From positions 226,282-290,281 of the forward strand of contig CAZRCW010000002.1 of assembly GCA_964598725.1 (NCBI GenBank): a stretch of 64,000 nucleotides of DNA. The letters are read 5' to 3'. Both the position numbers and the translations under genes were made by a program. Numbering within the stretch: the stretch's first letter is position 1; every line of letters starts with the position of its first letter. Origin of the DNA: an uncultured Gammaproteobacteria bacterium (lineage in GTDB: Bacteria > Patescibacteriota > Patescibacteriia > 2-12-FULL-60-25). Below the pieces are notes generated by a model. That model did not search any database. It was not told the DNA's origin and saw nothing but the letters and a program-made list of their open reading frames with translations. This document shows positions 3,362 to 48,887 of this stretch, piece after piece.

Positions 3362-3938
3362 GAGAAATGCGTTTGCCTGTCCACTGGTGATCCATTGCCG
3401 TCTTTAGGAAAACTTGATAGAACGTTGAGGCTACGAGAGTTGGCACACCTCTCAAGCGGACTACCAACGTCAACCCAGTGTGTCTCAGATCGGAGCCTTC
3501 TCGATGAAGCTTCAGTCGATTCGGCAGCAGCGCGCCCGCAAGGCCCAGCGTCCCGAGCGTTCGCTCATGTGGGGCGACCCGCGCCGGAAGTCTCGCTACA
3601 GCCCGCCGCGGCAGCCCGCCCGCGAGCAGCACAGGCGCCACCAGCAGAACGGCCGCGCCAAGGCCCAGGTCGCCCGCCACGTCCGCGGCGGCCGCAAGTT
3701 CGACCAGGGCGCCTCCCGCCGCCACTGATCCCCTCCGGTCGCCGGCATCCGCCGCGACCAAAATCCCCTCTCCAGCCCCGCCCCTCCGGTCCTCCCCGGT
3801 GGGGCGGACTGCTATATAAAGCATTATTTGACAGAAAAAGGCTCTGGGGAGTACAACTTGTCCCGCACGGCCCGTGCACACAGGCTGAAGCCGGCGAACT
3901 TCCTCTCCGGATAAGCACAGGGCGAACGAGGTAGCGCG

Positions 3939-4259
3939 ATGTCAGACAATGCGGGCGATACGCCCACCAACGAAGAAGGCACCGAAGGCTCCCCCAGCAA
4001 CCCGCCGACCGACGGCAGCGCCGCGACCGGCAACGAGGGCACCCCCTCGAACCCGCCGCGCGCGAGCAACCCGCCCGACGACGCCGACGAGAAGCCGGCC
4101 CGCGCGAGCAACCCGCCCGACGAGAAGCCCGCCGAGGACGAGCCCGCCCGCGCGAGCAACCCGCCCGCCGAGCCCGCGGCCGAGCCCGACGCCGCGGCCA
4201 CCCCCGAGGGCGGCACGCCCGTCGACGACGGCCAGGGCGACGCCCCGGTCAACCCGTAG
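3939..4259 (+). CDS. GC-rich orphan ORF encoding an acidic Pro-rich repeat protein with an (A)SNPP motif repeated five times
   Basis: The ATG is preceded by GAGGT 9 nt upstream. Third codon positions are almost all G/C in this frame. The protein reads MSDNAGDTPTNEEG...PSNPPTDG...PSNPPRASNPPDD...ARASNPPDE...ARASNPPAE. A strong terminator follows. Confidence 0.65.
   Translation: MSDNAGDTPTNEEGTEGSPSNPPTDGSAATGNEGTPSNPPRASNPPDDADEKPARASNPPDEKPAEDEPARASNPPAEPAAEPDAAATPEGGTPVDDGQGDAPVNP
4059..4166 (+). repeat. Three perfect copies of the 18-mer CGCGCGAGCAACCCGCCC (at 4059, 4101, 4149) inside the SNPP-repeat ORF
   Basis: Located by direct reading. The spacings are 42 and 48 nt, so the copies are in frame and encode RASNPP. 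Confidence 0.9.
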
Positions 4260-4348
4260 AGGGCTGAACCAGCCGCAAGAACAACACCCAGCGCGGAGGT
4301 AGACGCTGGAAGACCCTCAAACCTGTCCGCGTAACTCGCGGACACAGA

Positions 4349-4393
4349 AAACCACAGCGCTCACGGACTACCCCGGAGCGCTGGTTTCTTTTT
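4349..4393. terminator. Bidirectional rho-independent terminator shared by 3939..4259 (+) and capA (-)
   Basis: The sequence is aaaccacagcgctc-acggactacccc-ggagcgctggtttcttttt, with A-run and T-run flanks. A second hairpin, gtccgcgtaactcgcggac, lies at 4325..4343. Confidence 0.75.
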
Positions 4394-4407
4394 AAGAGGT
4401 TATTGGA

Positions 4408-5568
4408 TTATTTTATTCGTTGGAACACTAACACCTTTCCTTGTTCGATAGCTCCTTGGAGTGGTTCATCCGAAATCGATGCCAGCTTTTGTAGACGAGT
4501 GACCAACGTAGCGCCCGTCTCTAGCTTTGGCTGGCTCGCAATAATACTAAGCGGAACCGGTGCGATCTCGATTGTTTGAGGAGTGATATTCACTTTCAAT
4601 GCTAATCCTTGCTGTGTTTCTTTGGACCAATCTTGGTCGAAGATGAAATTGCCAAGCGACCACATGATCGGCTTGCCTTTGTATTCTGAAATGCCTTGGA
4701 CCCAGTGCGGATGGCCGCCGATCACGATATCGACACCTTGGTCGATCATCCAGTGTGCAAACTCAACGTTCCCTGCATCTGGATGGTCACGGTATTCCGT
4801 ACCCCAATGTAAGACACTGATCACCAGGGTTGCTTGCTCCTTTGCGAGCTTGATCGCTTTTGCTGCTTCCACGCGATCGATCGGATTATCCGTACTGTTC
4901 CAACCGAGGAACGCGATCGTCTCACCTTTGACCGTCGTCGTTGCCAGGGCAATGAGTCCATCATCCACTTGATGACCAAAGACCACGAAGCCAGCTTCAC
5001 GCAGACGCGAAACTGAGTTAGCATATCCCGCCGAGCCCTGATCTAGTGCATGATTGTTTGCCTGAGAGAATACGTCCCACCCCAGACCTTTCAGCAGCTT
5101 TGCCCAAGCCGGATCGAACTGAAAGTCGATCGACTTTACCGGTGGACGACGTACATCCGTCAACGAACCTTCAAGATTCGCGATCGCGAGATCCGGTTCA
5201 GAGATCCAGTTCTCCGGCAGCTGGCGAAAGGGATACAGCGAATCACCAGACTTCTTCGTCCGATCGGCGACGTTGCGATCGAGCATAATATCACCGACCA
5301 CTAACAGTGAGATATCAGAACTTGCCGCTGACGTTTCGGGCCTAGATGAAGGCGCAACGATCACCGGCGGGACAGACTCGGTAGATGTCGCTATCGAGTC
5401 AGAAGAGATGACATCGATCGAAGACGTTGGAGCAACCGAAACAGCCGGAAGAATCCTCGTCGGAGATACTGGGCTCTGCCATGAGAAATTCCAAGCGAGA
5501 TACAACGCGATACACAGCACAATCACTAACCCTCCGACCCACCACCAGATCTGGCTTTTTTGGTTCAT
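4408..5568 (-). CDS. CapA family protein (PGA_cap metallophosphatase-like), N-terminal membrane anchor
   Basis: Motifs present are LLVVGDIMLDRNV, NLEGSLTD, ANNHALDQG, HWGTEY and GGHPHWVQG. Confidence 0.8.
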   Translation of the reverse strand: MNQKSQIWWWVGGLVIVLCIALYLAWNFSWQSPVSPTRILPAVSVAPTSSIDVISSDSIATSTESVPPVIVAPSSRPETSAASSDISLLVVGDIMLDRNVADRTKKSGDSLYPFRQLPENWISEPDLAIANLEGSLTDVRRPPVKSIDFQFDPAWAKLLKGLGWDVFSQANNHALDQGSAGYANSVSRLREAGFVVFGHQVDDGLIALATTTVKGETIAFLGWNSTDNPIDRVEAAKAIKLAKEQATLVISVLHWGTEYRDHPDAGNVEFAHWMIDQGVDIVIGGHPHWVQGISEYKGKPIMWSLGNFIFDQDWSKETQQGLALKVNITPQTIEIAPVPLSIIASQPKLETGATLVTRLQKLASISDEPLQGAIEQGKVLVFQRIK

Positions 5569-5571
5569 AGG

Positions 5572-8792: not shown

Positions 8793-11003
8793 TTAAAACG
8801 GGTCCGGAATATACATTGGCTCGTCGCTGTTAGTCGGTGGTTTCTTTTTAAACACTGTCGACGGTTTCTGCTTCCAAACTGACTTCGTTCCCAAACGTGG
8901 AGCGTAGTTCGGACGAATTGGCGTTTTCTGTTGGAAGACGGGCTGATCATCCCACGAAGCCTGCACCCCATTGTCCTCATTCCATTCCCAGGGTCGTTGC
9001 GGTCGATGCGCAAAACTTGGTCGACTCACCGTATCAATAATTTCCACCCGGTCAAACAAGCGTGGCGCGACTTCGTCGATGAATGTACTCACCTGGTTAA
9101 AGGCCAGCGCTTCGTAGCCCATTGTCATCGGATAACTCAGGACGAGATGACGACGCGCACGGGTAACCGCTACGTAAAACAAGCGACGCTCTTCTTCCAT
9201 TCCCCCTTCCTCCGTCATGGCGCGGCGATTCGGAAAGGCCGTATCCGCCAGATGAATGATAAACACCGAATCCCACTCAAGCCCCTTTGCTTGGTGAATG
9301 GTTGAAAGAATGACCCGTTCTTGATTCAAATCCACCGTCTCGCCTTTTCGTCCGCCCATGACTTCATCGTAGAGGGCGATGTCAGCCAGGAACTTGGAAA
9401 CCTCTTCGTAATTCTCTGCGAAGCGTGCGAGCTGTTCCAAATCTTCCAAGCGCTCCTTCCAGTTCGGGTACTCGCGTTCGAGCAAGGTACGATACGAAGA
9501 GTCGAGAACAGCGCGGATCATCCCCGAAGGAAGCGGGCTCCGAAGCACGATCGCTTCTCCGACCTCCATAAACTCCTGCCAGCCAACCCGACCACGACTC
9601 GCGAGCGCAGCCATCTCAGGCGCCTGAATCACTTCCGCTAGAGAACCAATGCGAACGGCACGTTTAGTGAGGTTCCCCGCCGTGGTTGCCCCAATACCCG
9701 TCTGCAAACCTAACACGCGAAACCAAGCGATCTCATCGACCGGATTGGCTGCCACACGTAGAAAAGCGATGACATCCTTTATATGGGCGCGCTCGAAGAA
9801 CTTCTGGCCACCTCGGTATTCATAGGGAATATCACGCTTCATCAACTCAAATTCCAACGCTTGAGAATGGGCACTCGAACGGAACAAAACCGCCATATTC
9901 TCAAGCGCCGTCCCGTCTGAGCGGAACTGAAGGATCTGTTCAGCGACGTAACGCGCCTCTTGAGCCGCAGAGGCGCACGGAACCAACTTCGGTTTTGGCC
10001 CTGGGTCACGCATCGCCACCAACTCTTTTTCAAACTGCTCAGTATTGTGGCTTAGCGATTCGTTCGCCAACTCTAAAATTTCCGGCACCGAACGATAGTT
10101 CGTGAGTAACTTAAAAATCCTTGCTTCAGGCCACTGTTTTGGGAACGATAATATATTCTTCACATCCGCTCCACGAAACGCATAAATCGACTGGGCGTCA
10201 TCCCCTACAACCAAGACATTTTGGTGCACAGCCGAAAAGCCCTTCACGATGCGCGCCTGGATGGTGTTCGTATCTTGATATTCATCTACCAAAACGTATT
10301 TGAACATCTGACTCAACCCTCGGCCAAGGGATGGATCCTCAAGAACCATCGCCATCAATGACAGGAGGTCATCGAAATCAAAGGCGTTCGAAGCCTTCTT
10401 ACGATCTTGATAGTTGATCGCGATCGTCGCGATATCTCCCGCGAACTGAATAAAGTGTGGATGCTTCGCTTTCAAAACATCCTCGATCGAGCGCTGCGTA
10501 TTCCGGGCATACGAAATAATGTTTTGGACAACCGATGGCGATGGAAAGCGCCGTGCCTTTGGATCGATCGACAGATCTTTCATGACCGCTTTCACCAAAT
10601 CATCGGCGTCATCTGCATCCAGGATCGTGAAGTTATTGGTATAACCAAGTGACTCTGCATAGGGGCGAAGTAAACGGCTCGCCACCGAGTGGAAGGTCCC
10701 GCCCCAGATCCGCGCCGCCTGCGGACCGACCAAGCCTCCCACGCGTTGTAACATCTCTTTGGCTGCCTTATTCGTGAAGGTCAGCAAGAGAATCGAGGAA
10801 GGATCGATGCCCTGCTCCAAAAGATAAGCCACTCGATACGTAATCGTGCGCGTCTTACCGGACCCGGCTCCAGCCAAAACCAAACAGGCGCCGTCACCAT
10901 GCAGAACAACGTCCAATTGCTCTTGGTTGAGCTCGCGTTGGTAGTCGATGCGGCCACTTGGAATCGCTCCTGCCGGGGTGGTTGAGAGAACAAAGGTAGA
11001 CAT
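8793..11003 (-). CDS. pcrA: ATP-dependent DNA helicase, UvrD/PcrA family
   Basis: Motifs present are LNQEQLDVV, Walker A AGAGSGKTRTITYR, VDEYQDTN, VGDDAQSIYAFRGA, TIHQAKGLEW and VAVTRAR. Confidence 0.9.
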   Translation of the reverse strand: MSTFVLSTTPAGAIPSGRIDYQRELNQEQLDVVLHGDGACLVLAGAGSGKTRTITYRVAYLLEQGIDPSSILLLTFTNKAAKEMLQRVGGLVGPQAARIWGGTFHSVASRLLRPYAESLGYTNNFTILDADDADDLVKAVMKDLSIDPKARRFPSPSVVQNIISYARNTQRSIEDVLKAKHPHFIQFAGDIATIAINYQDRKKASNAFDFDDLLSLMAMVLEDPSLGRGLSQMFKYVLVDEYQDTNTIQARIVKGFSAVHQNVLVVGDDAQSIYAFRGADVKNILSFPKQWPEARIFKLLTNYRSVPEILELANESLSHNTEQFEKELVAMRDPGPKPKLVPCASAAQEARYVAEQILQFRSDGTALENMAVLFRSSAHSQALEFELMKRDIPYEYRGGQKFFERAHIKDVIAFLRVAANPVDEIAWFRVLGLQTGIGATTAGNLTKRAVRIGSLAEVIQAPEMAALASRGRVGWQEFMEVGEAIVLRSPLPSGMIRAVLDSSYRTLLEREYPNWKERLEDLEQLARFAENYEEVSKFLADIALYDEVMGGRKGETVDLNQERVILSTIHQAKGLEWDSVFIIHLADTAFPNRRAMTEEGGMEEERRLFYVAVTRARRHLVLSYPMTMGYEALAFNQVSTFIDEVAPRLFDRVEIIDTVSRPSFAHRPQRPWEWNEDNGVQASWDDQPVFQQKTPIRPNYAPRLGTKSVWKQKPSTVFKKKPPTNSDEPMYIPDPF

Positions 11004-11116: not shown

Positions 11117-11145
11117 TTGACAGTTTTATTAAATTATGCCATACT
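11117..11145 (+). promoter_or_regulatory. Sigma70-like promoter TTGACA-17-CATACT with TGc extended -10
   Basis: It reads tcTTGACAgttttattaaattaTGcCATACTagg in an AT-rich stretch about 270 nt upstream of the lipoprotein ATG. Confidence 0.45.
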
Positions 11146-11416
11146 AGGGCGTTCTGAAAGTCGTAAACGAGCACTTCTGCCCGTCTGATTTTCTGGGAAC
11201 CAGAGCCGCGAAGCAATTCTTCAAGGCTTGAGAGTGAGGTCGCTCTTTCCCAACTCGACCTACCACACAACGTTTAATCACCTCGACGTCGCAACATACG
11301 TCCCGGTGTCAATGGATTTCGAGGCCGTCAGTCAAGGACGGTCTGCCTTCATCTCGTTCGGCCACGGTGGCCAGCGAGCGTCTTCTCCACGCCTTGAGTT
11401 CACGGAGAGTCATCCC

Positions 11417-12814
11417 ATGAAGCGTTTCGCCCTCAAGTCCCTCGTTCTCATTCTCTCGATCGTCGCTGGCAGCACCCTCACGGGCTGCAGCCAGCAGTCC
11501 GAGCGCTCCGCCGCCTTCGACCGCCGCATCGGCGCCCTCGAGGACGCGGGCCCCCGCGTCATCGCGGCGCCCACGCCGGCCCCCGCGCCCACGCCGGCCC
11601 CCGCGCCGGCCCCCGGCGCGGCGCTCACAGACGAGCAGTCGCGCAACTTGGCGACCCTGGCGTACTGCACGCCCGGGCTGCCCAACTACTGCACGGCCGA
11701 CTGCGACGGCGACGACATCGCCAACTGCGTCGACGCCTGCCCCGCGCAGAGCGAGGGCACGGAGGCGCTGATGAAGGACGCGCGCTACGCCCGGCGCGGC
11801 TGCCTCGACACCGACGGCGACCACGACGGCGTGGGTGACACCCAGGACATCTGCCCCACCATCAAGCGGGGAGACCACGAGGACCTGGCGCGGCGCGGCT
11901 GCCCGAGCCCCGACAGCGACAACGACGGCGTGTTCGACAACAACGACGAGTGCCGGCTCATCCCGGTCCACTCGCCCGCCACGCCGACCGCCCCCGCGGC
12001 CGACGCCCAGCACGCCGGGTGCCCCGTCGACGCGGTCCGCGACCCGGACAGCGACGGCGACGGCGTCCGCGACGAGCGCGACGAGTGCCCGCACGAGGTC
12101 GCCGGCGACGATCCCCACCCCGCGCGGCTCGGCTGCCCCGACGTCGACACCGACCACGACGGCCGGCCCGACCGCTGGGACGGCTGCCCGCGCATCCCGG
12201 TCTGGTCGAACCTCACGCAGGGCGCGCCCGACGCGGGCGACTACCCCGGGTGCCCCGAGGGCATGACCCCGACCAACGACGCGCCGCCCGCCATCGCGGA
12301 TGCCGGCACGCCGACCCCCACCCCGACGACGGCCGACGCCGGCAACGCGCCCAACGCGCAGCCCGCCAGCGTCGCGGTGGTCCCGACCCCCGTCGCACCG
12401 CCCGCCCCGGCACCCGCGCCCACGACGACCACCCGGTCGATCGACGGCGCGGACCTGGTGACCGAGCTCACCCGGCTCATGCGCCTCAACGGCGGCGGTG
12501 ACGTCGCTGCGCAGGCCTTCTGCGAGGAGGCGATCGCCAGCGACATCGCGGCGCACAACCCCAACGACGAGTGCCCGGCGGGCGCCCTCTACTGCTTCCG
12601 ACCGGTGACGGCGGGGCGGCAGGTGGCGAACTGCACCGGCACGAGCGTGGACCTCGCGGGCTGCACCCTCGAGGGCAACGGCCACGTCCGCAACGTCTGC
12701 GTCCCCAACACGGGCGTCCAGATCCGCTGCGGCGCGTCGATCCTGACGTGCGACGTGCCGACGCTCGCCGGCGCCATCGCGGCCCGGCCGCGCTCGCGCC
12801 GCCACCACCGCTGA
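11417..12814 (+). CDS. GC-rich lipoprotein with thrombospondin type-3-like calcium-binding repeats and a Cys-rich C-terminal domain
   Basis: GGAGAG lies 8 nt before the ATG at 11417. The signal peptide plus lipobox is MKRFALKSLVLILSIVAGSTLTGC, followed by a PAPAPT linker. The repeats are DTDGDHDGVGDTQDICP, DSDNDGVFDNNDECR, DPDSDGDGVRDERDECP and DVDTDHDGRPDRWDGCP. GC3 is close to saturation. Confidence 0.8.
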   Translation: MKRFALKSLVLILSIVAGSTLTGCSQQSERSAAFDRRIGALEDAGPRVIAAPTPAPAPTPAPAPAPGAALTDEQSRNLATLAYCTPGLPNYCTADCDGDDIANCVDACPAQSEGTEALMKDARYARRGCLDTDGDHDGVGDTQDICPTIKRGDHEDLARRGCPSPDSDNDGVFDNNDECRLIPVHSPATPTAPAADAQHAGCPVDAVRDPDSDGDGVRDERDECPHEVAGDDPHPARLGCPDVDTDHDGRPDRWDGCPRIPVWSNLTQGAPDAGDYPGCPEGMTPTNDAPPAIADAGTPTPTPTTADAGNAPNAQPASVAVVPTPVAPPAPAPAPTTTTRSIDGADLVTELTRLMRLNGGGDVAAQAFCEEAIASDIAAHNPNDECPAGALYCFRPVTAGRQVANCTGTSVDLAGCTLEGNGHVRNVCVPNTGVQIRCGASILTCDVPTLAGAIAARPRSRRHHR

Positions 12815-12877: not shown

Positions 12878-12928
12878 TCACAAGTGATCGATGGGGGATG
12901 CCAGTCAACTCCCCCATCTCTTGTGTGA
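12878..12928 (+). terminator. GC-rich hairpin after the TSP3 lipoprotein gene (no clear U tract)
   Basis: The sequence is tcacaagtgatcGATGGGGGAtgccagtcaacTCCCCCATCtcttgtgtga. Confidence 0.45.
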
Positions 12929-12962
12929 TAGGTCACCTTCCCCGAAGTATCACTTCGGCCTA

Positions 12963-13017
12963 CGCCCGACGGTTCCCCGCTTAATAGCGGACTTGAACCT
13001 CGGGCGTTTGTCGTTTT
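12963..13017 (+). terminator. Second hairpin, with U-rich tail
   Basis: CGCCCGA...(inner ccgcttaatagcgg)...TCGGGCG is followed by tttgtcgtttta. Confidence 0.5.
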
Positions 13018-13054
13018 ATACGCAGAACAAGATGAGCAATTTTCTTTTAAAACA

Positions 13055-13082
13055 TTGACTTTTTGCTAATTATCCGTAGAAT
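13055..13082 (+). promoter_or_regulatory. Sigma70-like promoter TTGACT-16-TAGAAT
   Basis: It reads aacaTTGACTttttgctaattatccgTAGAATaat in a short AT-rich gap between two GC-rich ORFs. AGAAGAGG is the SD before the ATG at 13177. Confidence 0.55.
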
Positions 13083-13176
13083 AATAAAAGGCTCGTGATG
13101 CGTTCTGATGTAAAAGATCAGACGTGAACACAGCTAGAGTTCTACAACCCGAGCAAGAGAAAGAAGAGGTGCGTCC

Positions 13177-14553
13177 ATGACGGATGCGACTGAGAAACCT
13201 GCAGGACAAACCCCCGATCCCGACAGTGACGAAGCGTGGGGCTTCGACAACACCCCGCCACCGGACGTGGCGGCGGCACACCCGCCGCTCGGATCAGCGC
13301 CGCTGAACACAACTGGTCTACGACCGATATCGGCCGGGATCGCCGCCGCTCTCGAGCAGTGTGGTCCGCCGGTAGCAGTAGTACCCGCCACCCTCCCCCC
13401 GAGGGAATCGCAGCTGCTCATGAACGAAGAGCCGCTTCGTCGTCAGACGATAGAGGGTCTCGGCATGGAGCAGCCTGGAGCACCTGAGCGCCTCGATACG
13501 GTCCCCGCAGGGGGAACGGTATCGATCAACGGCGAACCAGGGAATGCGCTCCTGACGATTCGACCTACGGAGTTGGTGCCCGGCACTCAGCTGGGCTACC
13601 AAGAGTTCGCAGCAGCAGCCTCCCAACCTACTGCTGAAGGTAATCAGGAAGTAGACCTGACAGCCGTAACCCTGCCCCTGTCTCCCCGGGTACCGAGCCT
13701 CGACCACCGGACGGCCTACCGGCCGCCTCCGATGCCACGGGCTCTTGCGGGAGATGACACAGATCATGAAGTGGACCTGAGCCGACTGGTCGCGATGGTT
13801 CCCAGAGGCGTCATCCGCGATCACACGGCTCAGGAGCCACCGAGGGTCGCCGATACTCCTTCGCCCGAGCTCACACCGCCGCCCTCGGTCGAGCTCTTCC
13901 CAGAGCTCGCTGCCGCAAGCGGCGACATGTTCGACATCCCTGGAGCGAGCGCGACCAATGATCGATCATCGGCGACACCCGTAGACGCCGCCGCAGGCAA
14001 CTTCTTCCTGGATGATCTGGATCGAGGCCAGGCGGACCTACCTGAACAAGGCTTCCATGAGAGCGGATCATCACCCATCAATCCCGATGGATCGAAGCCG
14101 CCTACTGGCGACGACGAGCTTCTAGCAGAAGTGGGCGACCTCGCCTTCGCTCTCGCCTACCTCACCCTCTCCTCTCGGCTACCGACGGCTGGCCCACCCC
14201 CAGCTGCCACCGATGACGGACCGAGTCGAGCTCCGACACCTGCACCGCCCGTCGAGGAGCCGCTTCCATCGGTACTACCCCCTGAGCCGCCCACGTACGC
14301 AACTCAGGTGAGCGTTCCACCGCTCGCAAACTTCGTGGTCGATCCACCGACCAATGAGGAGACCGTCACCGCGCAGCGCGACGTTCCCACCCTCATCCTG
14401 CCCAGCCCGCCTCACCCCTGGTGGCGCTTCCGCTGGACTCATCGAGGCTGGTGGACCATCCGCAAGATGATGGTCGCCGTGATGATCACGGGCTTCATCA
14501 GCCTGGCGGTCGTCCTGATCCAGCGCTACCTCGAGTGGTACTACGGGGTCTAG
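13177..14553 (+). CDS. Pro-rich, largely low-complexity protein with a single C-terminal transmembrane anchor (tail-anchored topology)
   Basis: 458 aa with a good SD. The body has no recognisable domain and is rich in P/A/E/D. The C-terminus is PHPWWRFRWTHRGWWTIRKMMVAVMITGFISLAVVLIQRYLEWYYGV. Confidence 0.65.
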   Translation: MTDATEKPAGQTPDPDSDEAWGFDNTPPPDVAAAHPPLGSAPLNTTGLRPISAGIAAALEQCGPPVAVVPATLPPRESQLLMNEEPLRRQTIEGLGMEQPGAPERLDTVPAGGTVSINGEPGNALLTIRPTELVPGTQLGYQEFAAAASQPTAEGNQEVDLTAVTLPLSPRVPSLDHRTAYRPPPMPRALAGDDTDHEVDLSRLVAMVPRGVIRDHTAQEPPRVADTPSPELTPPPSVELFPELAAASGDMFDIPGASATNDRSSATPVDAAAGNFFLDDLDRGQADLPEQGFHESGSSPINPDGSKPPTGDDELLAEVGDLAFALAYLTLSSRLPTAGPPPAATDDGPSRAPTPAPPVEEPLPSVLPPEPPTYATQVSVPPLANFVVDPPTNEETVTAQRDVPTLILPSPPHPWWRFRWTHRGWWTIRKMMVAVMITGFISLAVVLIQRYLEWYYGV

Positions 14554-14614
14554 CCAACCCCATCCCTCCCCGTTCCCCGCTCCACGGAAGAGCGTCGAAC
14601 GTCTCCCTCCCCCA

Positions 14615-14663
14615 TCTCTCCCCAGCTTCCGTCCAAACCGGCTGGGGAGAGATTCTGATTTTA
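14615..14663 (+). terminator. Rho-independent terminator
   Basis: The sequence is TCTCTCCCCAGC-ttccgtccaaacc-GCTGGGGAGAGA-ttctgatttta. Confidence 0.75.
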
Positions 14664-14667
14664 TGGC

Positions 14668-14696: not shown

Positions 14697-14758
14697 TTTG
14701 ACGGTTTATCAATAGATTGAGTTGTGCCTCGAGGTACCGAAGCAATGAACTATCGCGT

Positions 14759-14831
<73 letters not shown>

Positions 14832-14876
14832 CATGGTAGTTCATCGTAGATAATCGCACATTTTTCTTTACATCCT

Positions 14877-15803
14877 ATGCGCTCACGTGAAGCCGTTCCT
14901 TCTCTCGCCAGCAAAACGCCGGATCGACGTTTATTAAGCGCCGCCTCGTTCGCCTTCTTATTCGCTCCGAGTATTACCGGCTGCGAAGCGGTGCATCACG
15001 CCATGCCGGGCTCACCAGAACGTCCACGGTCCGAAATCACACGCATCCAGCAAGAGGGTATGCCCCGAACGATGGAACGGGTTTTGGCGTTGGCCGTTCC
15101 AACTCCGGCCGAGCAAACGAGACATCCCGCGTTTGAATTCTCAACGCTGCGTATCAATGGCGACTGGGAAAATATCAGCAGTCCCGCCCATAGCATGATG
15201 CAGGCATTCGAAGGCACCTATCCGGTCGTCGCAATGAACAAAAAGCCACTGCAGACCGATCACATCGTGACCCGTGGAAACCAAGAAACGAATGATCAGC
15301 TCGTCCTCCATACGGTTGAACTAAGCTATCGAGCCACACGCACCGTGGTACGGAACGTGCACGAACCACGAGGCACCTCCGCCGCACGAACTCAAGCGGT
15401 TGGGCAACAAGTGTTAGCTCGACCGGTGGGCGAGCGACTTCCGGGTCGAGGCCCTGGGCCGGAACTGCAAGAACGACACTGGACAGCCGTTACCTATGGC
15501 GCCGCGCTTGGTGAAATCTTGTATCAAATGGGACACCCAACCGATACCGGCGCCGTCGATGCGCACATGCATGCCGATCAGGCACGAAGCATTCGGAACC
15601 ATCAACGCTTTCAAGGAGAGATTTGTGGACCCGTGACCGGTATCGATAACACGATTTACTGCACTCGAGTCGTGAACCAGCCAACGGTACGCGTGGTGAT
15701 CGATGATATTCGACAGGAGATAGACCCAAGCGGCTTAGTCCGCGTCAGTGTGCTCTATCATGGCCTCACCCAGGTTAGCGAGCCTCCCAAACCTGATAGG
15801 TAG
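14877..15803 (+). CDS. Hypothetical lipoprotein
   Basis: 308 aa. Signal plus lipobox is LLSAASFAFLFAPSITGC. I recognise no domain. The 3' end overlaps the convergent methyltransferase gene by 29 nt. Confidence 0.55.
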   Translation: MRSREAVPSLASKTPDRRLLSAASFAFLFAPSITGCEAVHHAMPGSPERPRSEITRIQQEGMPRTMERVLALAVPTPAEQTRHPAFEFSTLRINGDWENISSPAHSMMQAFEGTYPVVAMNKKPLQTDHIVTRGNQETNDQLVLHTVELSYRATRTVVRNVHEPRGTSAARTQAVGQQVLARPVGERLPGRGPGPELQERHWTAVTYGAALGEILYQMGHPTDTGAVDAHMHADQARSIRNHQRFQGEICGPVTGIDNTIYCTRVVNQPTVRVVIDDIRQEIDPSGLVRVSVLYHGLTQVSEPPKPDR

Positions 15804-16767
15804 TATCTTCCGCGATTAAAGAGGATCGCAAGCCTGCACGATCAAAATACTTCTTGACCGGAATCGTGCCCTGAACCACAAGTGTCACCAAACCACTTAC
15901 TGCCAAGTGGGTTTTGGCTTTTGAAATGAAGTATTCCAACGTCTGCGTCGTCAGGATCGCCCCTTGATGCACCGGTGGATTGCTGATGATCAGATCGTAT
16001 TTCGCGTCGGCTGGAAGCGCGTTCCAACTATCACCCCAAAGCGCGTTTATCCCCGGGACGTTGCGCTTAGTTGATTCGACGGAAAAGGCGTTCACATCAA
16101 CCGCGTCGATCGAAACAGTTGCAGTTTTTTGCTGAACAGCCAATGCCAGAATCCCTGTTCCCGAGCCCATATCAAGCACCTTGGCGTTCGCTTGAACTTC
16201 TGGAAGATGATTCAAAAGTAAGCGTGTTCCTTCATCCAACTGACCGTGGGCGAACATCCCAGGATAAGAAACGAGGCTGCGCTCTTTCCCCGCCCAATTC
16301 GCGGTAAACGTCTTTTCCCAAGCGTTGAGCGTTGGACGAATCCCTTGTCGTTCTTCGGTACGTACGGCTTTGATAACACGCTCTCGATGTTTGTAGATCA
16401 CCACCTCTGCGTCTTCAAACCAAGGAGCAAAATGATCTTGAATCGATTTGATCCCTTGATGATTCGCTCCGTACACCAAAATGCGTCCGTTCGGCGCTAA
16501 GCGATCAGCAGCGACTTCGACGCTCAGCGTAGTGAGATCGCGGCTCACGGGAAGGTGTAGAATCACCGCATCGAATGAGCCTATCGGCGGCCAGGTAACC
16601 ACTTCACGCCCGGACCAAATCCAGCTCCACTCGATCACTTCACAGCCGCGCGTACGTAACGTCTCCCCAACCAGAGCGGATACGGGGTCGATCAACAGAA
16701 CTCGGCCCGTGACGGGCTCAAGCTCGAGTCCTAACAGTAAGATGTCCCCCGGGTCGGTGAATTCCAT
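15775..16767 (-). CDS. RsmC/RlmG-like rRNA (guanine-N2) methyltransferase (MTS domain)
   Basis: VLDMGSGTGILALAV is SAM motif I, and DLIISNPPVHQG is the N-methyltransferase NPPxH motif. 330 aa with a two-domain layout. Confidence 0.75.
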   Translation of the reverse strand: MEFTDPGDILLLGLELEPVTGRVLLIDPVSALVGETLRTRGCEVIEWSWIWSGREVVTWPPIGSFDAVILHLPVSRDLTTLSVEVAADRLAPNGRILVYGANHQGIKSIQDHFAPWFEDAEVVIYKHRERVIKAVRTEERQGIRPTLNAWEKTFTANWAGKERSLVSYPGMFAHGQLDEGTRLLLNHLPEVQANAKVLDMGSGTGILALAVQQKTATVSIDAVDVNAFSVESTKRNVPGINALWGDSWNALPADAKYDLIISNPPVHQGAILTTQTLEYFISKAKTHLAVSGLVTLVVQGTIPVKKYFDRAGLRSSLIAEDTTYQVWEAR

Positions 16768-16770
16768 AGA

Positions 16771-18030
16771 TTAGTGGGTATGGGTATGACCATGTCCGCC
16801 ATGACTGCCGCCGCTTGTAACCTGCAGCACCTCTTCTTGGGTCATATTCCGTTTCTGGAAGACCCAGGCGGTCAACAAGGCGGTGATTGGAACGGTGAAG
16901 ACCAGACCAATCGTACCGGACAAAGAACGAATGACCTCATCAACCACACTGTCAAAGTTCACGAATTTCAACCAGGAGCCACCGAACTGGGTGTACAACA
17001 ACAACGTTGAAAGCGAGCCCCCGACGTAGGCATAAACGAGGGTGTTCGCGAGCGCACTCATATGATCGTTCCCGATCGTCATGCCCGCCTTGAAGAGCTG
17101 TCGGAATCCCAAGCGTGGATTCGCGCGTTTTACTTCGGCGATGCCAGAGGCGATCGAAACGGCGACGTCCTCGACCACACCGGCTGAAGCGATAATGATT
17201 CCAGCAAACAACAAACCCCGTGGATTTAAATTCGGATTCTTATCGAAAAACAACCGATCCTCTTCCGTCGACAACCCGTTCAAGTGCGCCCAATCAGCGA
17301 AAATCCACGAGATAAGATAGGCCATGAGCGCTCCACCCATCGTGCCGATCGCTGTCACGTAGGTCTTGCGATTCCAACCGATACTTAAACCGCCTGATAC
17401 CAACGTGAAGATTCCACTCAAAATGATCGCCACCGGAATCGGATTCACTCCACGCAAGAAGGCCGGGATGAGCACATATCCGATCAAAGCGATCGATACC
17501 AAAATCGAAACAGCGACCTTCAAACCCTGCCAACCCGCCAAGAGCACGAGCGCTGCCACAAACAGGATAACCAACCAAATGATCGCCGAGCGACGATCAT
17601 AGCCCTCGATGTAAAAACTCTGCCCAGCATCCGCTGATGATTGAATGAACACGACCACCTTATCGCCCAAACGAGGCTGGACACCGTAGGGGTTCGAGCC
17701 GACACTATTCACAATGTCGCGGGTCTGCCCATCAAGTGGTCCTGACAAGAACCGAACGGTATAGGCTTCGACCTGCTGTCCACCATTCGCGGTCTGCTCT
17801 TCTTTACGTTTTACTTGCTCGATGATGGCACGTTCGTACGAACCGTCGCTGCCGCCCTCCCCCGTCTCAACGGTGGCGGGCGTGTTGGTGGTGGCCACAA
17901 TCGTCGGCGTACTCGTTGTGGCAACGATATCAGGCACCGTTCCAGTCGTGGACTGCGCCTGAACCAATCCAGCGCTCATTAAGAGAACGCCGGCCATCGC
18001 TCCAAACAACGATAAGAGAAAACGCTTCAT
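16771..18030 (-). CDS. YibE/F family membrane protein with signal peptide and His-rich C-terminal tail
   Basis: The start is MKRFLLSLFGAMAGVLLMSAGLVQA at 18030. There is a soluble N-domain, then multiple TM helices typical of YibE/F. It ends in GGSHGGHGHTHTH. Confidence 0.7.
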   Translation of the reverse strand: MKRFLLSLFGAMAGVLLMSAGLVQAQSTTGTVPDIVATTSTPTIVATTNTPATVETGEGGSDGSYERAIIEQVKRKEEQTANGGQQVEAYTVRFLSGPLDGQTRDIVNSVGSNPYGVQPRLGDKVVVFIQSSADAGQSFYIEGYDRRSAIIWLVILFVAALVLLAGWQGLKVAVSILVSIALIGYVLIPAFLRGVNPIPVAIILSGIFTLVSGGLSIGWNRKTYVTAIGTMGGALMAYLISWIFADWAHLNGLSTEEDRLFFDKNPNLNPRGLLFAGIIIASAGVVEDVAVSIASGIAEVKRANPRLGFRQLFKAGMTIGNDHMSALANTLVYAYVGGSLSTLLLYTQFGGSWLKFVNFDSVVDEVIRSLSGTIGLVFTVPITALLTAWVFQKRNMTQEEVLQVTSGGSHGGHGHTHTH

Positions 18031-18044
18031 AGGTACGATCAAGC

Positions 18045-19517: not shown

Positions 19518-19520
19518 AGA

Positions 19521-34358: not shown

Positions 34359-35297
34359 ATGTTAGGTCGGTCTGAAATTTCTTCCCACACGCATAGAGAA
34401 TCTACAGCCGACTCCATCGTTCATCTGCAAACAGGTTCTGTTCAAATTTCAAAGAAGCAAAGTCTTGTTGAGCAACGTGGGGAATCGTTTGAAGAAATAA
34501 CCGCCATCCAGATAAAAGGCGAGAAAGGAACAGCGGACATCCTTGATCTTATCGAGAAGTCCAAGATACGCGTTTTACTGAGAAGAATTCGAAAACCGGA
34601 TTGTGCGACCGATAAAAAAAGCTATATCCGAGCTAATTGGGTTGAAACAGAACTAGATATCGTCGCGATTCTTCATGAGATTGGACATATAAAACAAACA
34701 TCCGACCCTAAGACAAAAGAAGTGTTTGAACTTGAAGAAAAGACAAAGCGCATTAGCGCAGTTGAGCCATGGCAACGCATTGAGCCGTACATACACAAAA
34801 TCCTTGCACTATTCCCAGAGAAGGCTGATCTTCTTGGACTCGATCCTCAAATCCAGACGTTGCTTGTAGAACTCAAACAACACGAATGGTCTCGCTTCAG
34901 GCAGGATGAAATATTATCTCTCCTGAACATTACCAAAAACGAGCAGGAGGCTACACATCTAACAGAAGAATATGAGCGTCTCTTAGAAGTTCCGCTTAAT
35001 CAGAATCGAATGATCGAGCTTCGCTTAGAGCTCGCCCCCTTCTTTCAACGAGTACAAAGCGTATTACATATTCCAGAAAACGAGATGGAAAAAGATGCGA
35101 CTCGACGAGCATTTCGTTGGATGCGTGAAATCAAAGAACGGACCGGGGTCGATTTATTTGCCGTTCTGAAGATTAAGAACTATCAACGTATTGCTCCGAA
35201 AAAAGGGGTGGATCTTGATGAAGAACAGGCCATATCTGCAATTCAAGATTTAGCAGATGCTTTGTGTACCTACTCAGACCGTAGTAAAGCGAATTGA
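34359..35297 (+). CDS. Low-GC hypothetical protein containing an HEIGH (HExxH) motif
   Basis: 312 aa. ILHEIGHIKQ is the only recognisable motif. The composition is visibly more AT-rich than the neighbours. Confidence 0.55.
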   Translation: MLGRSEISSHTHRESTADSIVHLQTGSVQISKKQSLVEQRGESFEEITAIQIKGEKGTADILDLIEKSKIRVLLRRIRKPDCATDKKSYIRANWVETELDIVAILHEIGHIKQTSDPKTKEVFELEEKTKRISAVEPWQRIEPYIHKILALFPEKADLLGLDPQIQTLLVELKQHEWSRFRQDEILSLLNITKNEQEATHLTEEYERLLEVPLNQNRMIELRLELAPFFQRVQSVLHIPENEMEKDATRRAFRWMREIKERTGVDLFAVLKIKNYQRIAPKKGVDLDEEQAISAIQDLADALCTYSDRSKAN

Positions 35298-35371
35298 GTT
35301 TATAGAGAAAAACTTGCAACTCTCTTCAAGATAAAGTCGACAACTCAACAGAAGAATGCTATCCTCCGCCC

Positions 35372-35780
35372 GGCGAAACAGATGACCGCGCTGGTCGCAA
35401 GACTGGTGAGGAAAGTCCGAGCACCGAACCCGTCGTAAGGCGGGCTGACAGCGAGAGCAGCTAACGACTGCCAGGATATACCTTTGAGTCGCAAGATTCA
35501 GAAGAAACCTAGGGAAAGTGCCACAGAGACAATACTAGCCAGGCGTAAGTCTGGTGAAAGGTGAAAAGTGAGTGGAGGTGTCGCGTCGCAAGATGCGGTG
35601 CTACCTCTCTCGCTGCGTGGTAACACGCAGTGTGGTAAACCCTCTCCGGTGCAAGAGCAAATCCTCGCAAGAGGAATGGTCGCTCGCTCGAGGTGACTGG
35701 CGACAGTCATCCCAGAGAGATGGTCATCGCTTGCTGTCGCAAGACCGCAAGTACAGAACTCGGCTTATCGTTTCGCCACC
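35372..35780 (+). ncRNA. rnpB: RNase P RNA, bacterial type A
   Basis: P4 halves GAGGAAAGTCCGAGC and ACAGAACTCGGCTTA are present. P1 pairs GGCGAAAC with GTTTCGCC. Conserved blocks AGTGCCACAGAGACAA, GGTGAAAGGTGAAAAGTG and GGTAAACCCTCTCCGGTGCAAGAGCAAATCC are also present. Confidence 0.92.
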
Positions 35781-35894
35781 AAAACCGCTCCGAACTATGG
35801 GGCGTTTTTGTATCCAAAAAACCTAATCGATTTGGGGAGCGATTCCTTAAAGTGCTATACTTTTAGCGTTATCTATTCATTTGATCTTTTCCCT

Positions 35895-41418: not shown

Positions 41419-41494
41419 GGGCCCTTAGCTCATTTGGTAGAGCACCTGCTTTGCAAGCAGGGGGTGGCCGGTTCGAGCCCGGCAGGGTCCACCA
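41419..41494 (+). tRNA. tRNA-Ala (anticodon UGC), G3:U70 present, CCA encoded
   Basis: GGGCCCTTAGCTCATTTGGTAGAGCACCTGCTTTGCAAGCAGGGGGTGGCCGGTTCGAGCCCGGCAGGGTCCACCA. Confidence 0.92.
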
Positions 41495-41496
41495 TT

Positions 41497-41525
41497 AAAA
41501 GACACTCCTCAGCGGAGTGTCTTTT
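41497..41525 (+). terminator. Terminator after tRNA-Ala
   Basis: The sequence is aaaaGACACTCCtcagcGGAGTGTCtttta. Confidence 0.8.
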
Positions 41526-41543
41526 ATATATACTAAGAACACT

Positions 41544-41882
41544 ATGCCAAAAGAACGTTTTGATGCTGCAAGTATCACGACTACACATTTTACTGAGCCC
41601 GGAGTCATCCTGGCCACTGAAGCTGAACGGGACTTTTCTGAAAAAGTCTCTGATTGTCAGAGCTTCGAAGCTTTATTTGCCCTTCTCCGAACAAAAGCAG
41701 ATGGCATTCAAGGGACTAGTCGGATATACCCACCGGAGGAAGTTATTACACGGATTGAGAGAGTCAGAAATGGGCACGATGTACTTCAACGTGTAACTCG
41801 TACTTTTGGCATTAACAGCAAGGTCGAAGAACTGCTACAGACAGATAAGACGTTTGCAAAGCGCGTCCTAAATCGGAAATAG
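41544..41882 (+). CDS. Small hypothetical protein (112 aa)
   Basis: MPKERFDAASITTTHFTEPGVILATEAERDF... The longer ORF start at 41517 falls inside the terminator hairpin, so 41544 is preferred. Confidence 0.5.
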   Translation: MPKERFDAASITTTHFTEPGVILATEAERDFSEKVSDCQSFEALFALLRTKADGIQGTSRIYPPEEVITRIERVRNGHDVLQRVTRTFGINSKVEELLQTDKTFAKRVLNRK

Positions 41883-41968
41883 AGCACTACAGCTATACGA
41901 CCATCGCTAGCTGCCTCGGCTCTAAAACAATCCGGTTCCAAAATTGGTCGGTGTGGTCCACCAGCATC

Positions 41969-41994
41969 AGACACTTCGATAAGAAGTGTCTTTT
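41969..41994 (+). terminator. Terminator related in sequence to the tRNA-Ala terminator
   Basis: The sequence is caGACACTTCgataaGAAGTGTCtttta. It is the same stem as 41497..41525, with a compensatory C-G to T-A change. Confidence 0.75.
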
Positions 41995-42082
41995 ATTATT
42001 TTCAATTCGTTACTAAAAGCAAAGCGCGCACCCGTGGGCGGCTGAACGAGTGCGTTCTTTGCCGTCCCGCGGATGCGCGAGA

Positions 42083-42406
42083 TCACCTCCTCTTTCTCGG
42101 CTCCCTGAGAACCGCGTCATGAGCGACGAGCTGCCCAGTCTGCAGACGCATGATGGCGATATCTGCCTGGAAGGCGTAGTACTCGCAACAGACGCGCCCG
42201 AGACCGTCGTAACCGGCGCTGGGCGTGATGCCGATACGCATGTCTCCGACCTGCACCGGCGTAGACTCGTCGCCAACGACCAGCGGCAGGCCCAGACGAG
42301 CCGTCTCCGCTCGAATCAGCTCCTCCTCCGGAAGGCTAGCCTTGATGACGACGCGTTGTACGATCGTCTTCCTATACCCAATCTCGATCCGTACTCTTAC
42401 ACTCAC
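42083..42406 (-). CDS. GC-rich orphan ORF, 107 aa
   Basis: GGAGGG lies 5 nt before the GTG at 42406. The protein reads SVRVRIEIGYRKTIVQRVVIKASLPEEELIRAETARLGLPLVVGDESTPVQVGDMRIGITPSAGYDGLGRVCCEYYAFQ... I recognise no family. Confidence 0.55.
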   Translation of the reverse strand: MSVRVRIEIGYRKTIVQRVVIKASLPEEELIRAETARLGLPLVVGDESTPVQVGDMRIGITPSAGYDGLGRVCCEYYAFQADIAIMRLQTGQLVAHDAVLREPRKRR

Positions 42407-42466
42407 ACGTTTACCCTCCAATCAGAGAAGTGGCATTCTGCCACAGAACGTCGTTTCCGACATAAT

Positions 42467-42494
42467 ATGATACTAAAAACCCTCTGGTAGTCAA
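42467..42494 (-). promoter_or_regulatory. Candidate promoter TTGACT-16-TATCAT for the 107-aa ORF
   Basis: The minus strand reads gcTTGACTaccagagggtttttagTATCATatt. Confidence 0.4.
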
Positions 42495-47594: not shown

Positions 47595-47626
47595 TATTCG
47601 CATTTAGACTAACGTACTTGCGAATA
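47595..47626. promoter_or_regulatory. 8-bp inverted repeat TATTCGCA-N16-TGCGAATA abutting the fur-family start codon (candidate auto-operator)
   Basis: The arms at 47595..47602 and 47619..47626 were verified as exact reverse complements. The ATG is at 47628. Confidence 0.35.
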
Positions 47627-47627
47627 T

Positions 47628-48065
47628 ATGGTCTCCCCTGTTCTCAAAGAACGTATCCGTGTCGCTGGCTTTCGGGCAACACCGAGCCGGTTAGCGGTAG
47701 CTGAATTGCTTGAAAAAGCCCACCAGCCGATCGGCACACCGACCCTGGCCGAAGCGCTCGTCCCAAATCAGCTCGACCTCGCGACCCTCTACCGTACCCT
47801 CAACTCGTTCGAGGAGAAGGGTTTAGTGCGCCATGTCGCCATCGATCAACGCTTTGCCTCCTATGAATGGATCGAGGATGAAGGACATCATCACCATCAC
47901 TTGGTGTGTAAAACCTGCGGTTTGATTGAAGAAATTTCGGATTGTGAACTGGAAACATTAGAGAAATCTGTCCTGAATGACGCCAAACAGTTCTTTGAGA
48001 TCAGCTCACATTCGTTGGAGTTCTTTGGGGTCTGTAAAACGTGTTCAAAGAAAAAGACGAAATAA
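47628..48065 (+). CDS. Fur family transcriptional regulator (Fur/Zur/PerR)
   Basis: A winged helix (RATPSRLAVAELL...TLYRTLNSFEEKGLV), a His cluster HHHHL, and CKTCG...CKTC zinc motifs are present. Confidence 0.85.
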   Translation: MVSPVLKERIRVAGFRATPSRLAVAELLEKAHQPIGTPTLAEALVPNQLDLATLYRTLNSFEEKGLVRHVAIDQRFASYEWIEDEGHHHHHLVCKTCGLIEEISDCELETLEKSVLNDAKQFFEISSHSLEFFGVCKTCSKKKTK

Positions 48066-48083
48066 CAAACTCGATCTGGATCA

Positions 48084-48116
48084 GCAAAACCCTCACTTCT
48101 TGAGGGTTTTGCTTTT
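48084..48116 (+). terminator. Rho-independent terminator after the fur-family gene
   Basis: The sequence is GCAAAACCCTCActtcTTGAGGGTTTTGCtttt. Confidence 0.85.
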
Positions 48117-48197
48117 CCTGGAACCTTTTATTACACTCGCCCACGATCGTAGCTGGGATGGATCCCAGGCTCGTTCCGCCCAGGAGGGGCGCATATC

Positions 48198-48887
48198 ATG
48201 GAACGTCCTTTTGAAATGCCGATAACGGTGCCTCCGCCTCGTGAGGCCATCCTCGCGCTCCTGGACGATCTCCGGGTCCTACGTGAGAACGGCCACTTCG
48301 TGTACGTGTCGGGGGTCCACGCCGACAACTACTTCCAGAAGAACCTGGCTCTCGCGAACGCGTTCGCGGCCGCTGGGATCGCGTTCCACATCGCCCGGAG
48401 CATCGTGGACCAGTTCCCCGGAGCAGTTCTGCTCGCGCCTGCCTCCGGCGGGATCGGCCTCGTCCAGCTCGTGGCCGACGCGGCTACGCGCATGTGGCCT
48501 GACGGACGGTACGTCGCGCTCTACGCCGAGAAGGTGACAGATGGCGGGTTCGAGATGAAGCGGAACGCGGATTTGCTCGACCTCAACCTGCCGCTCATCG
48601 GCATCGAGGACGTTGTCACGACGGGCAAGTCCATCCGCGATGTCGAGACGGCCGCGACGCGACACAACGGTCGACGCTTCGATGCCGTCCGCTGCATCTG
48701 CGATCGGGGCGTGGACGTCACCACGTTTACCACATCGAACTTCTGGGCCTTCCTGGAGCTCCTCCGCCCGGTCTACCAGCCGGACACCTGTCCGATGTGC
48801 GCGGAGGGGAAACGGATCGACACGGACCTCGGTCACGGCAAGGACTACGTGGCCAAGCACGGCCAGCCGCAACGCACGACCGCCTGA
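48198..48887 (+). CDS. GC-rich type I phosphoribosyltransferase-domain protein (OPRT-like) with C-terminal CxxC
   Basis: SD AGGAGGGG. The PRPP-binding loop is PLIGIEDVVTTGKSI. The N-terminal hood region is GHFVYVSGVHADNYF. The C-terminus has DTCPMCAEG. Confidence 0.75.
   Translation: MERPFEMPITVPPPREAILALLDDLRVLRENGHFVYVSGVHADNYFQKNLALANAFAAAGIAFHIARSIVDQFPGAVLLAPASGGIGLVQLVADAATRMWPDGRYVALYAEKVTDGGFEMKRNADLLDLNLPLIGIEDVVTTGKSIRDVETAATRHNGRRFDAVRCICDRGVDVTTFTTSNFWAFLELLRPVYQPDTCPMCAEGKRIDTDLGHGKDYVAKHGQPQRTTA

Follow-up and report, generated by a model that had tools for sequence, protein, structure and literature searches.

Short GC-rich genes in a 64-kb window of an Uhrbacteria-like bacterium: probably native genes with a maintained high GC3

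Compositional islands in bacterial genomes are routinely taken as evidence of horizontal transfer, or of the capture of host genes in the case of episymbiotic bacteria of the Candidate Phyla Radiation (CPR). Whether this is the right reading is the question raised by the window analyzed here, i.e. the whole stretch of 64,000 nucleotides from contig CAZRCW010000002.1 (assembly GCA_964598725.1, positions 226,282 to 290,281), in which short open reading frames (ORFs) of high G+C content (GC) stand in a sequence with an overall GC of 53.2% (mean 0.532). Are they recent arrivals from a GC-rich donor or residents of this genome? Our data favour the latter with a probability of roughly 0.6, namely that the islands are native genes whose high G+C content at third codon positions (GC3) is actively maintained. 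In the case of three of them, the ORFs designated T, D, and P, the high-GC3 state is old and stationary.

The steps in composition had first been noticed in a sequence-only reading of this DNA and were supported there by eight hand counts of 60 nt. All eight counts were exact on recounting, and sliding GC as well as GC3 z-scores show that the steps are real and lie where they had been seen. Sliding GC peaks at 0.68-0.73 in 3401-4400, 0.74-0.79 in 11401-12800, 0.62-0.66 in 13201-14600, ~0.61 in 21001-21400, 0.57-0.60 in 25601-26600, 0.61 in 42001-42400, and 0.65 in 48201-49000. The GC3 of the backbone genes in the window is 0.551 (sd 0.055, range 0.38-0.69, n=47), to which the following ORFs have to be compared:

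3504-3728, plus strand: ORF A, a 74-aa Arg-rich basic protein; GC 0.74, GC3 0.92
3939-4259, plus strand: ORF B, a 106-aa acidic protein with SNPP-type repeats; GC 0.77, GC3 0.95 (z=7.1), T at third codon positions (T3) 0.02
11417-12814, plus strand: ORF T, a 465-aa lipoprotein; GC 0.76, GC3 0.97 (z=7.5)
13177-14553, plus strand: ORF C, a 458-aa Pro-rich protein with a C-terminal membrane anchor; GC 0.64, GC3 0.67 (z=2.1)
21050-21466, plus strand: ORF D, a 138-aa coiled-coil protein with one membrane helix; GC3 0.83, counted from the corrected start
25619-25918, plus strand: ORF E, 99 aa, followed by a hairpin at 25927-25962; GC3 0.71
26061-26480, plus strand: ORF F, 139 aa, followed by a hairpin at 26494-26529; GC3 0.73
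42083-42490 (about), strand ambiguous: ORF and island G; GC about 0.60, GC3 about 0.71
48198-48887, plus strand: ORF P, a 229-aa enzyme of the orotate phosphoribosyltransferase (PRTase) family with a C-terminal CPxC motif; GC 0.65, GC3 0.83 (z=5.1)

At the codon level A, B, T, D, and P are the extremes (GC3 0.83-0.97), while E, F, and G are moderate. The island z-scores of 3-7.5 mean that composition and codon usage are atypical for the genome.

Before relatives could be compared, the origin of the window and the soundness of the assembly had to be considered. The best match of the PcrA helicase (66% identity) belongs to a Candidatus Uhrbacteria metagenome-assembled genome and the next matches reach at most 51%, which suggests that the window comes from a poorly sampled, Uhrbacteria-like CPR lineage of small genome size; no close sibling genome was found in these pcrA-anchored scans of GTDB genomes and JGI metagenomes. 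In public collections the genome is represented by a 399,919-bp NCBI contig and by Logan contigs of the run SRR12404947. GC-rich orthologues in flanks of ~50% GC were found in the fetched loci L162 (NCBI), L163, L165, L166, and L172 (Logan), and L167-L171 (ENA MEGAHIT). These finds bear directly on the proposal, made from the sequence, that high-GC fragments of another organism were spliced into the contig by chimeric assembly or binning. Apart from the composition steps themselves and a same-run Logan contig that breaks at tRNA-Pro and tRNA-Thr, nothing specific speaks for it. The P island and both of its junctions are identical in a 46-kb Logan contig, a second assembly of run SRR12404947, and junctions between GC-rich orthologous ORFs and low-GC flanks recur in at least seven independent samples and assemblers; chimerism is rejected and its remaining probability is practically negligible. 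The broken contig (Logan SRR12404947_675617, L164, covering ~14780-20820) ends exactly within tRNA-Pro and within tRNA-Thr, both of which abut islands, and these breaks are likely due to tRNA k-mers that are common across the metagenome.

The evidence that carries the main conclusion comes from T, P, and D. The signals around T are:

11117-11145, plus strand: promoter of T, TTGACA-N17-(TGc)CATACT, 10/12 match
12884-13020, plus strand: terminator region of T with two hairpins, conserved in L172

A leader of ~270 nt with backbone-like GC and without match to any Rfam family separates this promoter from the ORF. The protein has a lipobox signal, Pro/Ala linkers, 4-5 thrombospondin type-3 (TSP3) Ca-binding repeats (Pfam TSP_3, E=1.6e-12), and a Cys-rich C-terminal domain. 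An exhaustive HMMER search identified two full-length homologues of 41-45% identity, whereas all other matches cover the repeats only. The TSP3 repeats are most similar to OmpA-family proteins of Polyangia/Myxococcota. The orthologue in L172 resides at the same locus, with a GC of 0.72 and a GC3 of 0.90 between flanks of GC 0.49-0.54 (0.49 upstream). Promoter and leader agree with those of T at 68% identity, and the orthologue is followed by the same terminator and then directly by tRNA-Pro (31/31 nt identical). Among the three T genes 0.43-0.47 of the four-fold degenerate sites are identical, compared to 0.41-0.45 expected at saturation, i.e. these sites are fully saturated; of the 49-60 differences 26-41 (half to two-thirds) are exchanges between C and G. 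Exact look-ups of five alternative starts and of the antisense ORF found no frame of T in a public collection of 15 billion proteins, and neither T nor D has relatives in IMG/VR.

The same picture emerged for P, which matches PDB 4paw with E=1.7e-48 and has orthologues of 56-62% identity between the genes for Fur and IMP cyclohydrolase in L162 and L163. Its GC3 is 0.83, 0.83, and 0.85 here, in L162, and in L163, respectively, compared to 0.45-0.58 in the flanking genes. At four-fold sites 0.43-0.51 are identical vs. 0.34-0.39 expected at saturation, and in the neighbouring genes 0.30-0.45 vs. about 0.25. About half of the four-fold differences in P are between C and G, in contrast to 15-20% in the flanking genes, and the number of synonymous substitutions per synonymous site (dS) is 0.8-1.0 vs. 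1.5 to >3 in its neighbours. Hence, the synonymous sites of P have largely been turned over in three lineages without loss of G/C. A three-taxon parsimony count that had been read as decay of P (19 changes from G/C to A/T, S->W, against 3 in the opposite direction, W->S) had to be discarded; it equals the ratio expected for stationarity at saturation (~5:1) and does not discriminate. The gene is preceded by a conserved leader:

48124-48197, plus strand: 5' leader of P with two hairpins, the second overlapping the Shine-Dalgarno sequence; also found in L162 (1-73) and L163 (1026-1101)

This leader contains a TTATTACACTC box and shows compensatory changes in 6 of 15 pairs across the three lineages. 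It has no match in Rfam and may represent a regulatory leader of a nucleotide-metabolism gene. A conserved terminator follows 3' of P at about 48950-49007.

Island D is part of a larger conserved tract:

20600-21579, both strands: conserved block with tRNA-Thr, divergent promoters, D, and the D 3' untranslated region (UTR)
20773-20848, minus strand: tRNA-Thr(UGU)
20901-20873, minus strand: one of the divergent promoters
20926-20954, plus strand: the other one, the promoter of D (9/12 match and extended -10)

An ATG at 20945 overlaps the -10 box of D itself and D is called at 138 aa in relatives; the GTG at 21050, which gives 138 aa, is most likely the start. The order tRNA-Thr, D, MurD was recovered on seven contigs that represent two further lineages, where the GC3 of D is 0.86. 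The three lineages are about equidistant in MurD (nucleotide identity 0.77-0.81, dS 1.2-1.6), whereas the block ~20600-21579 is 0.90-0.95 identical among them, with a fall exactly at the MurD stop codon (21580), and dS of D is only 0.12-0.40. This low divergence permits parsimony. For 100 S sites it gives 14 S->W changes, for 16 W sites 10 W->S changes. W->S changes in D have been fixed about four times as often per site as S->W changes, the implied equilibrium GC3 is 0.82 compared to 0.86 today, and a backbone-like value of 0.55 is rejected (p=0.003). D is at compositional equilibrium and shows no amelioration.

Passive retention of donor composition fails as an explanation, because GC3 stays at 0.83-0.97 after synonymous saturation. 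Together with the equilibrium of D this means that a gene-specific force favouring G/C is acting now and that the composition is not left over from a donor. According to the mechanism we propose, the islands would be resident, lineage-conserved single-gene transcription units, in which a promoter of the sigma-70 type and a leader precede one ORF that is closed by a hairpin terminator. In T, D, and P the synonymous sites keep changing, but mostly by exchanges of C for G or G for C.

Recent horizontal acquisition from one or several high-GC donors, possibly the host, with insertion beside tRNA genes was another of the readings derived from the sequence, and it has to be weighed against these data. 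The large steps fit it, as does the codon usage of A, B, and T, which is like that of a genome with ~70% GC. The dinucleotide signature of T, C, and D departs from the backbone (z about 6-7 for T and C), A and B have no known relatives, and the TSP3 repeats of T find their best match in Polyangia/Myxococcota. The four tRNA genes for Pro, Thr, Leu, and Ala were confirmed; each is located 80-590 nt from an island, i.e. all four have one within less than 600 nt. Moreover, unit C occurs here but not in L172, and a duplicated tRNA-Ala 3' end would mark an old integration site. However, at the loci of T, D, and P relatives carry orthologues with GC3 of 0.83-0.90 in flanks of ~0.45-0.55 GC, at saturated or near-saturated synonymous divergence, which is incompatible with a recent arrival of these three genes. 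Their promoters and leaders are backbone-like and are conserved together with the gene. In agreement with the sequence-only reading, Pfam/NCBIfam scans of about 55 ORFs of the window detected housekeeping genes of ordinary kinds but neither an integrase nor a transposase. Attachment-site (att) type flanking repeats are missing around A/B, T, D, E/F, and P, and no close homologue in a high-GC organism was found for T (word-index and exhaustive searches) or P (word-index search). The two demonstrable insertions, C and the ORF at 41526-41882, are not among the extreme-GC3 units. Finally, the ratio CTC:CTG is about 3:1 in the islands and 184:69 in backbone genes on the same strand, whereas CTG is the usual preference of high-GC bacteria. 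C- and G-ending codons are balanced in the islands as in same-strand backbone genes, which argues for long residence. Overall, recent acquisition is quite improbable. The excess of CTC over CTG was also considered as a lineage-specific codon preference, which was rejected because it reflects, at least in part, the C>G skew of the lagging strand that plus-strand backbone genes show as well.

The neighbourhood of T provides a case of an island that did come or go. The elements downstream of T are:

13017-14650, plus strand: unit C, consisting of promoter, ORF, and hairpin terminator
13055-13082, plus strand: promoter of C, TTGACT-N16-TAGAAT, 10/12 match
14612-14665 (about): hairpin terminator of C
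14759-14832, plus strand: tRNA-Pro(CGG), immediately downstream of T/C

In L172 unit C is absent from its site and the T terminator runs straight into the tRNA-Pro promoter; comparison of the two sequences therefore indicates a true gain here or a loss in L172, beside tRNA-Pro. A 13-nt string, CTCCCCCATCTCT, occurs in the T terminator region (12906-12918) and again in the 3' region of C (14607-14619), and L172 has kept it in its T terminator, too. The adjacent units T and C seem to have reused terminator modules. The tRNA-Pro gene is flanked by a 21-nt inverted repeat (14745-14765 and 14824-14844, 86% complementary), which would lengthen the acceptor stem of the precursor.

C is also the ORF for which a simpler idea holds, namely that the GC excess is a by-product of low-complexity protein rich in Pro, Ala, Gly, and Arg. 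With GC at the first, second, and third codon positions (GC1, GC2, GC3) of 0.72, 0.54, and 0.67, C is GC-rich mainly through its Pro/Ala/Gly content and not through codon choice. In the RNase J gene a ~180-aa Pro/Gly/Arg-rich N-terminal extension (27598-28140) stands ahead of the conserved beta-CASP body; it has a GC of 0.61 with a peak of 0.64 and a GC3 of 0.51, so here as well the peak results from amino-acid composition rather than from codon choice. T, A, and B are rich in the same residues. Nevertheless, GC3 is the most deviant codon position in A, B, T, D, and P, and GC2 of D and P is ordinary (0.34-0.44). As a general explanation the by-product idea is refuted, and it holds for C and the RNase J extension only, leaving it very improbable for the islands at large.

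The islands have a common anatomy. They are monocistronic, are placed between operons of the leading strand, and have a promoter of sigma-70 type as well as a hairpin terminator. Among the five 10/12 promoter matches in 60 kb, three precede T, C, and G. A promoter had been claimed before each ORF; sites were found before T, C, D, and G, and before B by inspection, and the 21 of 29 positions said to be common to the promoters at 11117 and 20926 were confirmed. GC falls from 0.60-0.77 in the ORFs to 0.55-0.66 in the UTRs and 0.39-0.52 in the promoters, and within the ORFs GC3 exceeds GC1 and GC2, i.e. the synonymous bias is centred on the ORF. The most likely cause is selection on the transcript for G/C-ending, U-poor codons, a view that we hold with clearly less confidence than the maintenance of GC3 as such. 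It fits best because the bias is centred on third positions of the ORF, dS is reduced, and the promoters are strong. In strongly promoted island genes, such codons would be favoured for translation or for mRNA stability. For A and B the same explanation is extended by analogy only and may apply.

The islands are also alike in orientation. The plus strand, which is the lagging strand according to the GC skew of the window (-0.078), carries A, B, T, C, D, E, F, and P, while 34 of 48 backbone genes (71%) are on the minus strand (Fisher p=0.0013 for the contrast). This bias may partly be due to ascertainment, because only genes on the opposite strand form isolated units between leading-strand operons.

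Several observations weigh against selected maintenance, at least in the simple form of transcript selection. In the GC3-rich ORFs every G/C-ending codon is raised and so is GC1, which looks like a general GC pressure. The C and G endings are about equally frequent in four-fold families of the islands (GCC 0.50 and GCG 0.46, ACC 0.53 and ACG 0.44), and this near-equality argues against a simple tRNA-matched codon optimisation. Leaders and 3' UTRs are moderately raised in GC as well. The GC3-rich ORFs on the plus strand are all head-on to replication, whereas highly expressed genes are usually co-oriented with it. Weak translational selection is to be expected in CPR bacteria; a literature search on codon usage in Patescibacteria gave nothing relevant. 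The comparison with relatives covers T, D, and P and is based on contigs of 1-2.8 kb. The tRNA-Thr-D block is unusually alike between lineages including its non-coding parts, to which gene flow fits as well as constraint. Lastly, the genes may be of foreign origin in a distant ancestor and may have been maintained since; this is compatible with the data and would leave the conclusion unchanged.

[quoted passage not shown] The sharp ends of the tRNA-Thr-D block, the about fourfold W->S fixation in D, and the joint rise of all G/C-ending codons and GC1, as a composition-blind bias would produce, are in line with it, and in many bacteria recombining genes show higher GC3 (Lassalle et al. 2015, PMC4450053). 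In contrast, the conserved tract shows no GC enrichment in its promoter parts (0.39-0.52) and only a moderate one in its UTRs, and the excess is strongest at the third codon positions of the ORFs. T and P show no signs of recent exchange, their proteins being 41-62% identical and more diverged than their neighbours, and identical breakpoints in three about equidistant lineages would need repeated transfers with identical ends. The effect of gBGC in bacteria is also far smaller than the +0.3 to +0.4 in GC3 seen here. All in all, we regard gBGC as rather unlikely. It is unlikely, too, that in this CPR clade the islands form a dedicated class of monocistronic, head-on genes (for surface, membrane, and small proteins and a PRTase) in which a targeted process, different from ordinary expression-linked codon selection, upholds the codon composition of a high-GC organism. 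Such a process could be, for example, a codon match to a high-GC host that interacts or exchanges with these genes or their transcripts, or a GC-biased repair or conversion that is coupled to conflicts between transcription and replication and affects lagging-strand transcription units only.

Is the phenomenon restricted to this window? When 120 other loci (2.2 Mb) were scanned as a control, outliers, defined as ORFs whose GC3 exceeds the locus median by at least 0.22, proved to be rare, and the real ones include the two nearest relatives among the fetched loci, L081 and L001. L081 contains small ORFs at 9094-9818 with GC3 of 0.81 and 0.69 vs. a locus median of 0.47, which are divergent from pcrA, like T, and are on the lagging strand as well. 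In L001, which is syntenic in part only and in which the region of island 1 is absent, a small ORF from 11610 has a GC3 of 0.71 vs. 0.43. The remaining reading made from the sequence, a lineage-specific class of promoter-ORF-terminator cassettes, comes closest to the data insofar as the units are conserved and GC3-rich ORFs recur in L081 and L001. Evidence for mobile cassettes was not found, given that att repeats around the GC-rich ORFs, an integrase, and phage relatives are all missing; significant PHROG or PADLOC matches were not obtained either.

The remaining islands can be described more briefly. The signals around B, both recognized by inspection, are:

3828-3857, plus strand: promoter-like site of B, TTGACA-N18-TACAAC, an AT-rich patch within the island
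4352-4394, plus strand: terminator of B, a hairpin with a T-run, CCACAGCGCTC...GAGCGCTGG TTTCTTTTT

The promoter-like site fails the scanner rule, which requires a T at position 6 of the -10 box. The repeats of B are imperfect and 42-51 nt long, and B forms a singleton cluster in the public collection. A is followed by a GC hairpin at about 3778-3808; it has no Pfam, PHROG, or PADLOC match and no entry in the public protein collection by exact look-up, and several frames of island 1 are likewise without match. The products had been described as mostly orphans, which has to be revised for T with its two full-length homologues and for P as a member of the orotate PRTase family.

E and F are located upstream of a further tRNA gene:

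26589-26675: tRNA-Leu(CAG), 3' of the F hairpin

Both ORFs are followed by a 44-nt element (25925-25968 after E, 26492-26535 after F) that is 98% identical between them and forms a perfect 13-bp GC hairpin. No further copy of it was found in the window or in 173 fetched loci, and despite the common terminator no homology between E and F is detectable. Island G can be read on either strand. The minus option (42083-42406/42421, 107-112 aa, GC3 0.71) has a promoter at 42494-42467 (10/12) and a GGAGGG Shine-Dalgarno sequence, while the plus option (42119-42490, 123 aa) is the public gene call. The strand stays ambiguous, although promoter and Shine-Dalgarno sequence favour minus. Nearby, a second copy of the 3' end of tRNA-Ala (CCGGTTC...GGTCCACCA), together with that of its terminator hairpin, is located ~470 nt downstream (41486-41527 and 41955-41996; 42 nt, 74% identical). 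The two copies bracket the ORF at 41526-41882 (118 aa, GC 0.47, no family match), and the arrangement looks like an att-site relic of a tRNA-integrated element without remaining integrase. At the other compositional end, a 312-aa ORF at 34359-35297 with a GC of 0.43 and a GC3 of 0.38, the minimum of the window, has no Pfam match and is situated just upstream of the RNase P RNA gene (35370-35783).

How do the islands relate to known systems? They resemble tRNA-associated genomic islands in their sharp composition step, their location beside tRNA genes, their mostly lineage-restricted products, the variable unit C, and the nearby tRNA-Ala duplication. They differ from such integrase-mediated islands by being single ORFs of 0.2-1.4 kb without integrase and without att repeats at the GC-rich ORFs, by native-type conserved promoters and leaders, and by same-locus orthologues of the same composition across saturated divergence without amelioration. 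The patchy presence typical of genomic islands is found for C only (absent in L172), while relatives have T, D, and P at the corresponding loci. The codon bias of highly expressed genes is resembled in the concentration on third positions of ORFs, dS 2-10 times below that of neighbours, near-consensus promoters, dedicated terminators, and the preference of NNC over NNU. It is not matched by a shift of +0.3 to +0.4 in GC3, the rise of all G/C-ending codons and of GC1, the head-on orientation, the products, i.e. small or surface proteins and a PRTase instead of translation machinery, and the CPR organism, in which weak selection of this kind is to be expected.

With the gBGC described by Lassalle et al. 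2015 (PMC4450053) the islands share a fixation bias towards G/C that is independent of codon optimality and strongest at third positions, and in D also a low divergence; they differ in being confined to single transcription units, in the much larger effect, in promoter DNA that is not enriched, and in T and P, where signs of recent exchange are not seen. Integron cassettes are similar as single-ORF units with a 3' hairpin element, which in E and F is even the same. Unlike them, the islands have their own promoters, are dispersed and not arrayed, and stand in a window without integron integrase (Pfam scans), and the hairpins are perfect 13-bp terminator-like stems in contrast to attC, as judged without attC models. 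A genome-wide tendency to select for higher G+C in bacterial genes was reportedly described by Hildebrand in 2010 and by Raghavan, Kelkar and Ochman in 2012. The islands agree with it in preferring G/C at synonymous sites although the mutational input is neutral or AT-biased, but here the force is switched on for about one gene in ten and off for the genes directly beside it.

Thus, strong-looking "foreign" genes of this window, at least T, D, and P, are old residents, whose GC-richness is upheld gene by gene. If this is true genome-wide, the detection of horizontal gene transfer based on GC or codon usage would give false positives in this lineage. Public gene callers mishandle such genes, since T is uncalled and G is maybe called on the wrong strand. 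The products, among them a Ca-binding lipoprotein and small membrane and repeat proteins, are plausible cell-surface or host-contact factors of an organism without cultured relatives. Furthermore, if the pattern extends over the genome, adjacent genes with the force on or off would provide a natural contrast for finding out what favours G/C in bacterial genes.

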